Source of the DNA: an uncultured Fidelibacterota bacterium
GTDB taxonomy: Bacteria > Fidelibacterota > Marinisomatia > Marinisomatales > UBA1611
Length of the DNA: 13,321 nt
Assembly (NCBI GenBank): GCA_913040915.1
Contig: CAJWHW010000035.1
Coordinates: forward strand, 1-13,321
Reading direction: 5' to 3'
Part shown: one piece after another, positions 3,001 to 9,000 of the stretch
How the letters are laid out: each line of letters begins with the position of its first letter
How positions within the stretch are numbered: the stretch's first letter is position 1
Position numbers: made by a program

Positions 3001-6000
3001 AATTATCCTACTAAATTTTTTATTACAATAATCTTTAAAGAACTGAAACATATAAAATTGTTTATTTTATCTTTTTTATCCACTGCTGTAGGCTAGCCAT
3101 TTTTTCAATGGTTATGGCGCAAACACCAAATGATTTTTCCACTATGCCTCTAATGATAAACAACGTTTCCCAGTGGAGCATATCGCCGAATTCACTGAAC
3201 ACACTAGGTAATAAAACACATTCATAGATCTCTGTTTCATCTTCCATCGTTAAAAATTCCATGGGCTCCAAATTACCAGTTATAGTTTCCTTCCGTGTAA
3301 TATACACTCCAATCAAATAAATGGATTGTCCCACAAATTTTGGGATGTCCTTAGCATATTTGATTCTTCGACTCAACCGTGGCCGATATACTGTCAATGG
3401 ATGGACCGATAATGGATATCCAAACGTTTTTAACTCCATTTGGTATTGATCTTCATCGGATAATTCTTGACAATTTGGTGATACTTTTAGAGGCTGTCGC
3501 TCACCATTTTGGAGATAAAAACCTGCCACGCGATAAGCTAATTCTCGATGATTCAACTCCGGTGCTAATTGCCGAAAACATCCGGCATTGGTTAAAACCA
3601 TTGCATCTGCTAAATCCAACTCCACACGATATAAAAAATCGTTCAGTGAATCGAACTCCCCGGCCTTTCTTTCATCTAGAATTCTGTCCACTGCTTTTTT
3701 CTGAAGTCGCTTTATACTCATGAACCCCATGCGAATTTTATTTTTTCGTCCCCGCCATTCCCGGTTACTTCTATTTACATCCGGCGGCAGAATCTGGATT
3801 CTGAAACGTCGAGCTTCACTCATGTAGGCATAGGATGAATAAAAGCCACCTTGGTTGGAAATAACGGCTGCTAAAAATTCTGCTGGGAAGTGCGCTTTTA
3901 GATAGGCACAGGTGAAAGATAACATGGCGTAGGACGCTGAGTGGGGCTTGCAGAACGAATAGCCAGTAAAGGATGCAATCATGTCCCATACACCTTGAAT
4001 CATTTGGGGCCTATAACCTCTCCGGAGTGATCCTGCTGTGAATTTCTTTTTCCACGATAAAATAAGATGCTGCATGGAATCACGGCTCATGGTTTTTCGC
4101 AACGCATCTGCTTCCGCATAACCCAACCCTGCCATAACCATAGCAGCCATGGACACTTGTTCTTCATAAACCATAATACCATAACTCTCAGATAAAAAAT
4201 CCAAATCAGGATGAAGCAAATTCCATTCTTCCCCGTGAATCCTTGATAACATTATATTGGTAAACCGATTTGCTGCCGGGCGGATAATGGATGAATAAAT
4301 CACCACATGTTCAAAATCTACAATACCGGCCTTTACTAAGAGTTGCCGTGTAGCTGGACTCTCAATATAAAACACACCCATGGTTTTTCCCGATTTCATG
4401 AGTTCTTCAGTTTTACTATCTCCTACAGGCTGGATTTGATGATAATCTACATACTTATTTCTGGATGCCGCTTCGCCGTAATTCAAATTCACCTGGCGAA
4501 TCGTATCTCGTACTACTGCCAGACTCCGATTCCCCAACAGATCAATTTTCAATAGCCCTGAATCTTCCACTTGATCTTTTTCCCACTCTACAATCTGGAT
4601 CCCTTTCGGTGCCACAAGCACAGGTACATATTTTCGAATTTCATCCGGTACAATCACCACACCTCCGGGATGAACCGAGGAGTGACGGAATACCCCTACA
4701 ATTTTTTCACTCTCACGTAAAATGCGAATCAAAGTATCATCTAGATCTACATTAGCAAATCTTGGGTCGGTTCGAACCCAATGTTCTAAGTCCCTTCGGG
4801 AAGCATACCAGCCAATCCGCTTGGTAATACTTTTGATCTCTTCGTTGGATAACCCATGAACCTTCCCCACTTCCCGAATGGCAGACCTTGGTTTTAAAAA
4901 TACTTGGCTCGACACCATGGCCGTCCGAGTATTTCCATATTTTTTGAATACATATTCTAGAATACTAGCCCGCTCATCCCAAGGAAAATCCACATCAATA
5001 TCCGGCATATTTTCCCGTTCCGGATGGATAAATCGTTCAAATTGGAGTGAGTGTCGAAGTGGATCGACCTGCGTGATAAATAAACAATAACTTACAATAG
5101 ATGCAGCAGCGGAGCCTCGGCCGATAGTGGCACGGGTTTGTTCAACAATATCTTGCACAATCAAAAAATATGGTGAAAAACCCTTTTGCGTAATAATACT
5201 TAATTCGTGTTGAATGCGTTGTCTGATTATCTCATTAATCTCTCCATATCGTATCTTAGCACCAACGTAGACTTTCTCTTTCAATGTTTCACTAGAATGA
5301 TACGTCTCTTTTAAAGAAAGCCCGGGAAAAATTGTATTAATAAATGACCAATCCCGTTTACACCGATCTGCCAAATAACGGCTGTTATTCAGTGAATCCA
5401 AACTGTTAGGAAAAAGTCTCACCATATCCGCTTCAAATCGAAACCAATGCTGATCCGATTTATATTCCGATCGGTTCAATTGTTCCAGTGTAGTATTTTT
5501 TTCAATAGCTCTTAGCATTAGGTGGGCATCATGGTCACTTGGAGATCTGAAATAGACATCACCTGTTCCTACAATCTCCAATTTAAATTTTTTGGATAAA
5601 CGATGTGCTTCAGACTCCTGAATACTTGGACGTAGCTCAATAAATAAATGGGTGTCTGGAATAAATTTCATCAACGCTTTCAACGTATTTTCATCATGTG
5701 CGAGAACAAATAAACCAATACATTTTTCCCTTAAAATATCTATAACCGATTGGTTGGGATTATCATGAATAGCAGACACAATACGACAGATATTTTCATA
5801 CCCATACTGATTTTCTGCCAAAAGGATTACTTCATCTTTATCTGTAATTAAATTTGTGCCAGCGATGGGAAAAATTCCTGCATCTTTGCAATGCTGAACA
5901 AAATGGATAAATCCCCATAATCCATTTACATCTGTCAGTGCTAATGTATCCATGCCCTCTGATTTTGAAAGAGATACCAAATCTGAAAGTGATAAAAGTC

Positions 6001-9000
6001 CACGCATGGGAGAATAAACAGAATGAGTGTTTAAATGGATAAACATTTACAATCGACCTAATGCCTGAAATACATCTGCTGTTTGCAGGCTATGAACACC
6101 ATACTTCTGCCGAACTTTTTCTACCGCTTTAGAGACAGCCATATTCCGATTCTCTCCTGTTAAAAAAAGGTCTGTCTGATAAACATAAGGCCGAAAATCA
6201 GACACATCAATCAAAATGGTTCGAATACGATTTCGTCTTTCATTTGCCTTATTAAAAAGTTGCCGACAGACTGTAATCACCGATGTATCATCAATCCCGG
6301 TAATACACCCAATACTGTGACGCTGATGACCATCAATGTAATGAATGACCAATCGAACCCTGTTCGCCAGTTGTCTTCGCTGACGCAGTTTAAAGGCTAC
6401 CTGTTCTGCTAAATTTTTCACGATAGGATGAAGCACCGTTTCATCATTGGTATCTTCCGGAAGCACCATTTGCTCTACAATATGATCCCGGAATTGATGG
6501 GGCCTTACGACAGATGAATCTTTCCCTTGTGCTTCCCGTGCCAATTGGACGGCATGGATACCAAAGAATGTCAGAAATTGATCTGTGTTGCTTGCCATGG
6601 ATTGAATCTGCTGAACCTGTTCAATCCATAAAAATCGGAGCAAACGTTGAACAGGTTTTTCCTTCACTTTAGGTAGAACTAGCGGTATCAAAGGAGATAA
6701 AAATTTTGCTTCTTCACCATTCTGTACTTCATAAATCGTTTCAGGAACCACAGATGTTACAATCCGGCTTATCAATTTATTGATGCTGATACCCACCATG
6801 CCTGCGATACTGGTTTTCTCTTGGATTTGCTTCAAAATAGATAAACCGGTATTATGAGCATGACTCCGAATCTCACACATTCCATTCATATCCAGATAGA
6901 ATCTGCCCATGCCTTCCAACTCCACAACTGGAGTAAATGTGGATACGGTTTCATATACATAACGATTCACGCGGGCATAAAGTGCTTGATTATAGGGTAG
7001 TAACTGGACACCTTGACTCATTTTGCGAGCGATGGAAACTTTCATGCCATGGGATAGTCCTTCTTCTTTTGCTTCTGGAGATAAAAACAGAATTTTACCG
7101 CTTGGCCGGGTAGATGAGATAATGGCTACCGGACGTGTATTCAGACTGGGATCCATGATCCGCTCTGCCTGGAGCTGTAATTCCTTAAGACGTATATGAA
7201 AAACGTCTTGAGCGATCATGGAAGCGTACCTAGTTCAAATAATTCCGGAAGGAATAAAGAAGCACGCCATTAATATGAAAATCGTCTTGTGGATTTATTT
7301 TAATGATTGGAAATTTAGGATTCCTGGGATGGAGCTCAATACAATCCAGTCTGGGAATATAACACTTTAATGTGGCTTCACCATTGATCAATGCTACCAC
7401 AATTTGCCCGGATCGAGCTGTAGCTGCTTTCTTCGCAACAATAAAATCGCCATCGTGAATATTTTCATCGATCATGGAATTCCCTTTCACCTGTAGTACA
7501 TAGTTATCAGGATGCAGCAAGGATGGAGGTACATCTACCATTTCTGGGTTCTCTAACGCTTCGATGGGTTCTCCCGCAGCAATAAGGCCCAGCAGCGGCA
7601 AACGAGCTGATGTAGTTGTGGCGTGCTCTTTGTGGATTAATGTGAGCGCTCGCTTACCGTTGGGACCTTTTATACGAGATAAATGACCTTCTTGTTCTAA
7701 GGTCTTTACATACCAATTCACTGTCCCCAATGAACCAAATCCCAAACTAGCCATAATCTCTTCATAGGATGGAGAATAGCCGTGGATCAACGTGAATCGT
7801 TGGATAAAATTCAGGAATTTTTTCAATTTTGGGGACAAGGCTTTTATCACGAGGTAATAGAAAAATATTGTGTGATAGATTTTCCATCCCAGACAATAGA
7901 TCGAGATTCTTTTTTACATTCATATTCCTTCAGCCTGGCTAACGCCCGAATAACAGCTAAAGATGGTTGTTTTTTTATTCTTTTCTTCATCATTTGTAAT
8001 ATACAGAATTCACTAAGATTACAAAGGCTTTCTCTTAGATAACTCTATATCCCTTATGTTTTATAATATTACTCGTAAGTTACTCGTAAGTATATTACAA
8101 AAGTTTTTAGTTTTGTGCAAATAAAAAGCCCCTGTGTCTAGGGGCTTTTTATAAATGTAATGAAATAACTTTGAAGATTAAACAGGCGCTGCGAGCCAAA
8201 GTCCAGTAAAAAGCAATAAACCAGTTACACTGTGCATAATTATTGTACCCCAATTTGCCGGTTCAAGTAATCTGTCATTATAATACTTGTATAAGGTTTG
8301 AATAGAAGTCACGCCAAAGTACGAAGCTAATAAGGTAATTAAGATTAATGAAGGGAAAGTACCATTCAGTACCAGAAAAACTATACTTAAGAAAGCACCT
8401 GAGACCAGTGCCACATAACCTGCCCTCGCTTTCTCTGGACCAAATACAACAATTAGAGTATTTTTGCCTGTAGCTTTATCACTGTCATGATCAGGAAATT
8501 CGTTAATATAAACAACAGCAGCTATTAAAAACCCCAGCGGGATTCCCGCTAAAAATGCTTCAGGCAACAGTTGTCCAGTTTGCACTAATGTACTGCCGGC
8601 AACCATCAATGGACCGAAATTGAGTCCTATTAATAACTCCCCCATACCTTTCCGCGATGCGAATCTAAATGGAGGAGCAGTATAAAATAAACCTGATAAA
8701 AAACCAATTAAACCCAACCATAAAATTGGCATACCCGCTTTCTGTATTAACGGAATACCTACCAACACACTTAAAGCAAAAACGGTAATTGATAAATTTC
8801 TTACACCATATGGAGAAATAAGTCCCATCTGAATGCCTCTACTACCACCGTTAAGACCTTTATTACTATAATTATAGTTTAGATTATCTGTCCCACTTAA
8901 GTGATCAAAATAGTCATTTGAAGTGTTTGTCCCAATGTGCAGTAGAGAGCCGCCTAATAAGGTTACACCTAACCAGTACCAATCAACCGTATAACCTAAA

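Follow-up and report, generated by a model that had tools for sequence, protein, structure and literature searches.

The 13,321-nt window analysed here belongs to the genome of an uncultured Fidelibacterota bacterium (G000). On the minus strand, at positions 8091-8070, it carries an 11-bp direct repeat made of two identical 11-mers, ACTTACGAGTA. The repeat is very probably (roughly 0.9) the operator bound by the LexA whose gene lies 219 nt downstream, which would repress one cassette transcript. As a putative LexA operator, it would add a new member to the direct-repeat class already described. The repeat marks one LexA clade, present in 55 of 151 sampled genomes, and not the whole phylum. This reading draws on the position and conservation of the repeat, its match with the clade, the co-variation of its two units and its duplication where the operon is split, as well as on the intact residues of the LexA and the RecA-NT tail of a neighbouring protein.

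Table 1 Features of the lexA cassette and its promoter region.
Feature	Coordinates	Strand	Description
-35-like hexamer TTGCAC	8115..8120	-	Many relatives have a TTG-type hexamer in this position
-10-like hexamer TAATAT	8092..8097	-	Repeat begins immediately 3' of the hexamer
Putative operator unit 1	8081..8091	-	ACTTACGAGTA; spans discriminator and inferred transcription start (~8085)
Putative operator unit 2	8070..8080	-	ACTTACGAGTA; 11-bp period
Perfect 13-bp hairpin with A/T tails	8121..8152	none	Inverted repeat between PAS-UbiA gene and operon promoter
Imperfect hairpin in lengthened 5' leader	8001..8050	-	Relatives have an inserted GxxExxY (PDDEXK_3) gene here
48-aa basic ORF	7847..7993	-	One predicted helix (12-35); stop overlaps lexA start
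lexA	7230..7850	-	Winged-HTH and S24 domain; Ala92-Gly93 cleavage site, Ser125, Lys162
ImuB-like inactive Y-family protein	6047..7219	-	C-terminal RecA-NT motif, without ImuB-C extension
Second DnaE alpha subunit	3062..6046	-	Pfam and NCBIfam; PDIDVD and KIDLL motifs present

The repeat at the operon promoter

The first-pass annotation had placed a tandem repeat directly behind the -10 box of an operon of a small ORF, lexA, imuB and dnaE2. This placement is correct, its 21-mer corresponding to 8091-8071. The transcription start is positioned from the spacing to the -10-like hexamer, which is separated from the -35-like hexamer by 17 nt, and a TAnnnT hexamer abuts the start of the repeat in 49 of the 54 clade loci described below. 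A simple promoter scan of the G000 locus did not call the operon promoter, including its TTGCAC hexamer. Within G000, the repeat is the sole match up to 4 mismatches. A weight matrix built with the three loci of G000's family left out scores the site at 38.6 bits; the runner-up, inside a coding region, scores 16.8 bits, and reversed or shuffled matrices reach top scores of 11.8-19.9 bits.

The perfect hairpin upstream is probably the terminator of the PAS-UbiA gene, and is absent from the list returned by a terminator scan. The imperfect hairpin in the leader is possibly an insertion scar, with the GxxExxY insertions at this position found in loci L097 and L103. A 12-bp inverted repeat (7993-8004/8090-8101) was set aside; by eye it is not apparent in the leaders of relatives.

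Distribution across LexA clades

We read 90 lexA loci, comprising 89 of the 102 strong LexA matches in 151 genomes and one weaker match. The repeat lies upstream of every clade lexA with readable upstream DNA (54/54; 45 differ at no more than 3 of 22 positions, the rest at no more than 7) and of none of 35 other lexA loci (best at least 8 mismatches), with one further locus having no upstream DNA. The clade is characterized by the recognition helix GT[VI][NHSD]WY. The box had been described as the operator of this phylum, which is too broad; it follows this clade. Conservation among close lexA loci proves stronger than the 18 of 20 originally claimed: 44 of 48 have the site, three have too little upstream DNA, and L124 has no site in 353 nt. 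Since kin share sites, these counts are not independent.

Pattern searches give a similar picture. At 1 mismatch there are 49 matches in 48 of the 151 genomes (reversed control, 15): 46 ahead of a clade lexA, one ahead of the split-off imuB-dnaE2 of genome G073, and two elsewhere. At 2 mismatches the pattern is not specific, with 113 of 151 genomes matching and the reversed control doing so equally often; 34 matches of this run were left unlisted, most of them uninspected. Order-wide, 106 of 233 genomes have a pattern match (control, 13), 101 of them a single one; of the five second matches, one belongs to a second cassette and one to a duplicated promoter, two are coding and one is weak and intergenic. 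Among 80 loci read in a metagenome scan, lexA lies downstream in 70 and five more are truncated within the same promoter context; in five the exact 21-mer is distant from lexA, two of these forming a longer tandem array within one GC-rich sequence.

The other lexA genes of the phylum are without this box; most of those that are dnaA-linked or in the sister clade have other 11-bp repeats. Cassette lexA genes of the sister clade are preceded by GTTC-N7-GTTC or GTAC-N7-GTTC in the equivalent position. A quick tree of 63 of the 90 loci and 5 outside loci joins the sister clade to the repeat clade on one branch (SH-aLRT 99). In the two sister LexAs with the helix SVGTVSWY, both units read ATTAGCGAG. 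The phylum's 11-bp direct-repeat boxes (TTACG, TAGCG, GTTC/GTAC, GTACGC) are paired with different recognition helices, a series with few events of joint helix and box change behind it that is useful for testing LexA specificity change and the recognition of direct repeats by a dimer.

In G073, the one case of a split operon, sites lie ahead of both lexA-dinB (24.7 bits) and imuB-dnaE2-SRAP (31.4 bits). A conserved site over lexA's own promoter, which follows the genes when the operon splits, points to an SOS box. It would be a testable one in a marine phylum that is abundant yet uncultured, and the literature searched gave no SOS box for this phylum.

Size of the regulon

The first-pass annotation also held that the box occurs once per genome and that LexA controls only the mutasome operon. 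For G000 the sequence supports both statements: there is a single site, and none ahead of recA, uvrA, uvrB, ruvA, recN or the SRAP gene (3-4 kb each; best <0 bits). As general statements they are too broad, given the two sites of G073, and given that at least six genomes with the repeat clade also hold a second, dnaA-type lexA and that cargo varies: among the 54 loci, three are lexA-umuDC, one is lexA-dinB and two have no adjoining polymerase gene.

A regulon of more than one unit, extended by degenerate sites, by half sites or by a second LexA that the assembly lacks, would leave the operator reading itself intact, and we consider it unlikely. G000 is 85% complete and is without the contig of dnaA, a gene behind which other members keep a second lexA, so that the cassette LexA being its only one is inferred from three relatives (G047, G137 and G012); in these, dnaA is not followed by lexA and each genome has one lexA match. 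In genome G018 a single good half-site (5.6 bits) precedes a detached umuDC, and G073 has its two full sites, but scores ahead of SOS genes are otherwise low: at most 3.3 bits ahead of 41 recA genes (25 from genomes with the repeat clade), where the 400-nt upstream stretch is mostly coding because recA lies directly behind another gene in most of these genomes, and at most 6.6 bits ahead of uvrA, uvrB, ruvA, SRAP and dinB in five genomes (recN rows uncounted, as 4 of 5 were mis-anchored). The matrix and patterns come from lexA promoters, so weaker secondary sites may escape them.

A direct repeat and its relatives

The box consists of two half-sites in direct orientation with an 11-bp period, which places it in the direct-repeat class of LexA boxes. 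Read as a direct repeat, the units are identical in 82% of cells, compared with 61% complementary on the best palindrome axis, and where both units leave the consensus at one and the same position they carry the same letter in 12 of 15 cells. Information content correlates between units at 0.86 in the direct and 0.28-0.43 in the inverted reading. The G000 sequence is readable as two TTAC-N2-GTAA palindromes, and the best axis leaves 7 of the 9 consensus pairs complementary. LexA binding the site as such palindromes, or as a central GTAA-C-TTAC, in the manner of the Bdellovibrio box, is nonetheless rejected on the conservation pattern as very improbable: the T and A needed for the palindrome show the lowest conservation of all columns (0.5-0.8 bits), the would-be spacer is conserved, and the box of the sister clade is a plain direct repeat. 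The Bdellovibrio box itself is TTAC-N3-GTAA, whereas here only 1 or 2 nt would separate the arms and the units vary as a direct repeat does.

Direct repetition and the 11-bp period are shared with the alphaproteobacterial box GTTC-N7-GTTC (PMC8565304, PMC3323433; portions of these sources). The sister clade has these same letters, whereas the core of the repeat clade is TTAC(G). In the portions used, recA and uvrA belong to the regulon under the alphaproteobacterial box, in contrast to the single detectable unit of G000. The Balneolaeota LexA box TTACACATATTTTWTACATA, derived by comparative genomics and validated by gel shift according to the sections of PMC7739468 available, is likewise a direct repeat with TAC-based half-sites; it differs in its letters (ACATA, compared with ACGAG here) and in a regulon described there as including recA, Pol IV, Pol V, a helicase and SRAP.

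Products of the operon and proposed mechanism

The small ORF leads the operon, followed by lexA, the Y-family gene and the DnaE gene. The lexA product contains PF01726 and PF00717 and scores 140 bits with TIGR00498 (cut-off 111). Its domains, Ala-Gly site and Ser/Lys dyad assign it to LexA, with self-cleavage predicted in the presence of RecA; G000 has a recA gene, as do 144 of the 151 sampled genomes. Compared with DinB of G073, the Y-family protein has its catalytic acidic motifs replaced. Its tail matches the RecA N-terminus (86.5%, E 4.6e-6), and the protein stops ~15 residues past the motif's KYG, with the ImuB-C domain absent. A dead Y-family subunit with a RecA-NT motif suggests a mutasome component. 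No ImuA gene was found in the five genomes searched, NF033429 matching recA alone and below cut-off in 5/5; the search covered an incomplete G000 assembly, and in no control genome did the model score up to its cut-off.

The other DnaE of G000, on contig C4, is 28% identical to the operon DnaE. The latter scores 539 bits with the error-prone polymerase model NF004225, below its cut-off of 939, and lacks the C-terminal SRDF[HR] motif, which the portion of PMC3919608 consulted gives for ~77% of DnaE2. "DnaE2" is therefore used here as a label by context: a second DnaE copy with catalytic motifs in a probable LexA cassette. In two metatranscriptome assemblies with a small share, contigs cover parts of lexA and the start of the imuB-like gene only, and are uninformative on start site and level.

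The RAxxRL core reported for the small ORF is borne out: of the 47 close loci that include upstream DNA, 45 have RA[IVLM]xR[LI]. A median pairwise dN/dS of 0.39 (203 pairs) indicates purifying selection. The ORF is confined to G000's family among the loci read. It has no Pfam, NCBIfam or usable Atlas match, its one-helix model (pTM 0.38) has no fold match in the PDB, and a homologue search among 26-84-residue proteins returned three close relatives only. The idea of a free RecA-NT peptide is unsupported (hhalign gives a probability of 0.9% for RecA-NT and of 0.2% for the ImuB tail). That another protein binds the repeat and LexA does not is scarcely credible: in G000's family the first gene to follow the site is the small basic ORF, and the site also occurs in phages showing no lexA in the surrounding DNA read, but just 3 of the 54 clade loci in the phylum sample have the ORF core, whereas the site is in 54/54 and tracks the LexA clade and helix, and a global regulator would have many sites where G000 has one.

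With LexA as the binding protein, we propose that it would contact a pair of half-sites in head-to-tail order, spaced by one turn of the helix (core TTACG-N6-TTACG). It would thereby occupy the promoter from the -10 hexamer to beyond the transcription start and repress a single transcript of the small ORF, lexA, imuB-like and dnaE2 genes. Upon DNA damage, RecA would trigger LexA self-cleavage and the operon would open; the dead Y-family protein may then bind RecA via its RecA-NT tail, in place of ImuA, and recruit DnaE2 for error-prone translesion synthesis, until newly made LexA closes the loop. The LexA would be a cassette-bound paralogue, with only co-travelling mutagenic polymerase genes as detectable targets.

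As proposed here, a LexA paralogue in the Pseudomonas putida lexA2-imuA-imuB-imuC cassette shares a transcript with the mutagenesis genes and controls them, according to the part of PMC3901139 used, and that system also shares the presence of a second LexA, seen here in some genomes. It differs in that here no imuA was found, the cargo is umuDC or dinB in some members, and the cassette LexA is the only LexA found in G000's family. LexA control of only a mutagenesis cassette has already been reported in several organisms (PMC3323433, in part), and the present operon would be a further case of a LexA regulon shrunk to mutagenesis genes. The Streptomyces coelicolor DinB2-DnaE2 type, as covered in the excerpt of PMC6511836, has the same inactive Y-family protein with RecA-NT tail and DnaE2, and no ImuA or ImuB-C; we liken the two by features, not phylogeny, and here lexA and the small ORF lead the operon.

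Copies of the box in marine phages

In a related set of marine phage loci, 8 of 49 have this box near terS, some of these loci carry an iron-type box, and in some marine phages the box sits at the genome ends. Raw matches in viral contigs are not above the control (15, compared with 22 for the reversed pattern), and the variant box of the SVGTVSWY pair has one viral match. The phage TerS was not found in 401 Marinisomatota genomes. The capsid of a second phage family matches in one of the 401 (29-35%), on an all-phage-like contig; among named phages only a Bacillus phage matched.

Tentatively, marine phages may have captured the LexA operator and the iron-type box, at genome ends and at other non-coding places, the former soaking up LexA so that host error-prone repair acts on damaged phage DNA, or serving the phage in sensing host damage, which would make the box a marker of Marinisomatota hosts; we hold this to be possible but doubtful. 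Extra phage operators would titrate LexA because the host regulon would be one autoregulated unit, with the translesion machinery encoded in it as well. Should this LexA bind the phage copies, an uncultured phage family could be assigned to a host and operator titration could be put to the test. LexA sites are known in phage GIL01 (PMC4551915), and phages co-opt LexA, Spo0A and CtrA (PMC9437464), as far as the available parts of both papers describe. In contrast to the GIL01-type cases presented there, the Marinisomatota host here is putative and the boxes appear to miss any obvious promoter. Shared with GIL01 and CtrA-type phages, in those same parts, are copies of host operators, putative ones here, in non-coding phage DNA, and the CtrA copies are concentrated at genome ends.

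The probable operator and its operon

On the minus strand of the window, an 11-mer repeated in direct orientation lies directly behind a −10-like hexamer, as the first-pass annotation had stated. The repeat is followed in the 3′ direction by a 48-residue open reading frame, lexA, a Y-family polymerase gene and a gene for a DnaE α subunit, with neighbours overlapping or abutting. The operator 21-mer has a single occurrence in the genome (1.86 Mb, 85% complete) when up to 4 mismatches are allowed, and it scores 38.6 bits with a weight matrix built from lexA promoters, the three loci of this genome's family being withheld from training. 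The second-best place is coding and scores 16.8 bits, inside the range of 11.8-19.9 bits spanned by reversed and shuffled controls. It is very probable that this repeat, found in part of the phylum, is the LexA operator of a cassette-bound LexA; its letters are new, and this kind of operator is already known. Positions 8178-9458 (minus strand) encode an unusual fusion of a PAS domain to a UbiA-family prenyltransferase, also found upstream of the operon in some relatives.

Features of the probable operator region, with related sites in the genome and in phages
Feature	Position or loci	Strand	Basis or remark
−35-like hexamer TTGCAC	8120-8115	−	sequence; 17 nt before the −10-like hexamer
−10-like hexamer TAATAT	8097-8092	−	sequence; adjoins the repeat directly
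Probable operator, 11-mer ACTTACGAGTA twice, identical copies	8091-8070	−	sequence
TGAGAnTnAnTCTCA sites in this genome	C1:133126, C8:25649, C15:24486 (contig:position)		loci L474-L476
Phage box 120-200 nt before terS	L236, L237, L246, L282-L286
Phage box after capsid stop codon	L336, L340, L342, L343, L347

Cleavage site and catalytic dyad are both present in the operon LexA. Among named records, proteins up to 92% identical to this LexA come mostly from entries labelled Marinimicrobia or Neomarinimicrobiota, which puts the genome in Marinisomatota. In the Y-family protein the catalytic acidic residues are missing and a RecA-NT motif forms the C-terminal end, and imuA was not found in five genomes; this fits the ImuA-less arrangement of an inactive PolY with DnaE2, which has been proposed to use RecA (PMC6511836, excerpt). 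The operon DnaE has no SRDF tail, a feature of ~77% of DnaE2 proteins (PMC3919608, excerpt), and a second DnaE is encoded elsewhere in the genome. By analogy with these protein families, LexA would repress the operon, which would be inducible, and the Y-family protein would contact RecA.

The site follows one LexA clade

Of 151 phylum genomes, 120 gave a LexA-like match, 102 of them reaching E 4e-26 or better. We read 89 of these strong matches and one weaker one; the 13 omitted belong to families f17 (12) and f15 (one), and one of the 90 loci had no upstream DNA. The repeat is present at all 54 loci with upstream DNA whose LexA has the helix GT[VI][NHSD]WY (45 within 3 of 22 mismatches) and at none of the 35 other lexA loci, which restricts to this clade what had been claimed as the operator of the phylum. 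A TAnnnT hexamer ends immediately 5′ of the site at 49 of the 54 loci, and at 14 the lexA start is no more than 10 nt from the site. At L003, L005, L008, L011, L012, L014 and L015, only 1-4 nt separate the operator from the lexA start and a Shine-Dalgarno sequence is not obvious, which would leave an mRNA leader of ~20 nt. Mobile-type genes recur within the unit under LexA control, in many cases immediately after the operator (L097:166-543, L103, L006, L010, L019, L179:1862-2296; GxxExxY/PDDEXK_3 and IS200 assigned by Pfam, the rest by eye).

Allowing one mismatch, the pattern returned 49 places in 48 of the 151 genomes (reversed control, 15): 46 before clade lexA, one before a detached imuB-dnaE2 and two elsewhere. 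Close lexA loci from the species collection (n=48) have the site in 44 cases, with 3 cut off and 1 without it. Across the order, 106 of 233 genomes match, 101 of them once, counted as pattern matches irrespective of lexA; the five second matches comprise another cassette, a duplicated promoter, two places in coding sequence and one weak intergenic place. A single match is what the window's genome and most matching genomes of the order have; genome G073 has two boxes. Among metagenome loci (80 read of at least 118), lexA lies downstream in 70, and a further 5 break off within the same promoter context; the remaining 5 comprise three phage-like loci and two forming a tandem array within one GC-rich sequence. 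The same or similar 11-mers occur in three- to four-unit arrays, probably tandem expansions, in L377, L416, L421, L309 and L310, whose sequences look unrelated to the phylum.

Direct repeats in this and other LexA groups

Judged by its letters, the operator is a direct repeat: across 34 distinct sites, both units depart from consensus together in 15 cells and share the new letter in 12 of these, and information content correlates between units at 0.86 in direct and 0.28-0.43 in inverted alignment. Two sister LexAs with the helix SVGTVSWY have ATTAGCGAG in each unit. A quick tree gives SH-aLRT 98 for the clade and 99 for its join with three cassette LexAs, whose promoters have GTTC-N7-GTTC or GTAC-N7-GTTC; the former is also the alphaproteobacterial direct-repeat LexA box (PMC8565304, PMC3323433, excerpts). 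Another LexA group, which lies behind dnaA in the four genomes examined for this, has repeats that are mostly [GA]T[AT]C-N7-GT[AT][CT]; at L057, L061, L064 and L071/L198 a second LexA group stands directly behind dnaA with GTACGC-type 11-bp repeats, and the dnaA-linked LexA of f15 is followed by a DinB-like gene. Most loci of f17 and f22 have no repeat near the start. A long-branch group with the helix SNF[AS][IV]QK (L067, L072, L077-L087) has a Y-family gene next, and most members lack any 11-bp repeat in the 110 nt nearest the start. Patescibacteria have a TTCGG direct repeat as LexA box; three outside loci, one titled Saccharibacteria, have CTTTCGG at the same period as the operator units. 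The literature matches listed include no LexA box for Marinisomatota, and the supplements of PMC8565304 and PMC7739468 may give further motifs.

Regulon and cassette cargo

The gene after clade lexA (n=54) is imuB-like in 41 cases, umuDC in 3 and dinB in 1, with no polymerase gene in 2 and 7 cut short. Each half of the split G073 operon has a box in its upstream region, the strongest single sign linking the box to LexA control over the polymerase genes. In the window's genome, nothing scores above 0 bits in the 3-4 kb before recA, uvrA, uvrB, ruvA, recN and SRAP; upstream of 41 recA genes the top score was 3.3 bits, a weak test outside this genome because recA mostly sits close behind another gene. 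The proposal that LexA controls the mutasome operon and not recA or uvr agrees with the scan of this genome and is too narrow for loci with umuDC, dinB or no polymerase gene. A second LexA was likely lost in this family, since three relatives carry a dnaA that no lexA follows and yield a single lexA match apiece; dnaA itself is absent from the 85% complete assembly. LexA regulons confined to such a cassette have been described in several organisms (PMC3323433, excerpt), and Pseudomonas putida LexA2 is a model of cassette LexA (PMC3901139, excerpt).

The small open reading frame

The claim that a conserved ~48-residue reading frame leads the operon in this family was borne out: 45 of the 47 close loci that include upstream DNA encode it, mostly with its end on the lexA start. 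Median pairwise dN/dS is 0.39, with 99% of 203 dependent pairs below 1. Its core occurs at 3 of the 54 clade loci, all three from this genome's family. Conservation and dN/dS argue for a real gene, and the restricted core for one that is dispensable for the operator. Our best guess is that its product would be an accessory factor of LexA or the mutasome, GIL01 gp7 serving as an analogy only (PMC4551915, excerpt); alternatively, the frame may serve translational coupling to lexA.

Copies of the box in phages

In a scan of viral sequences the exact repeat turned up in 4 contigs, in 3 of them upstream of a terminase-small-subunit-like gene (terS). Sites of at least 20 bits occur at 8 of 49 related marine phage loci with upstream DNA (396 kb), 3 of the 8 having been found via the motif itself, and the reversed matrix gave no sites there. 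Nine sites are located 120-200 nt ahead of terS and a tenth at −549; they occur in both orientations and in two groups whose TerS proteins are ~50% identical; L284 and L286 have two copies each. The boxes fall in a hypervariable stretch alongside a conserved G-rich...CATTCC element, and other members have TGAGAnTnAnTCTCA in the same stretch. In a second phage family, 5 of 20 loci have the box directly after the major capsid stop codon, before a terminator-like hairpin.

In the window's genome, the TGAGAnTnAnTCTCA palindrome precedes genes for a solute-binding protein, a TonB-dependent receptor and, with one mismatch, a ferritin-like protein, and because of these genes it is probably the iron-regulator box of this lineage. 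When phage loci were compared with this genome by blastn, the operator (29/30 nt) and the TGAGAnTnAnTCTCA box (22/22) were among the top matches. Several points count against phage capture: such iron boxes are not known to be phylum-specific, degenerate viral matches show no excess (15, versus 22 for the reversed control), TerS was not found in the 401 phylum genomes searched, and in our reading no phage box overlaps a clear promoter. The more surprising lead comes from the phage copies, for which a host is needed. Phages are known to exploit LexA, Spo0A and CtrA of their hosts (PMC9437464, excerpt), and Marinimicrobia phages have been reported (PMC4611503, excerpt); among the literature matches listed, none bears on LexA sites as phage decoys.

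At L297:1501-1520, LexA and iron-type boxes lie ~50 nt apart, and the sequence read there contains no terS. Upstream of terS in L282, L284 and L287, the word TGTGA[CT]GT[GA] occurs two to three times at ~23-nt spacing, possibly a third protein-binding site.
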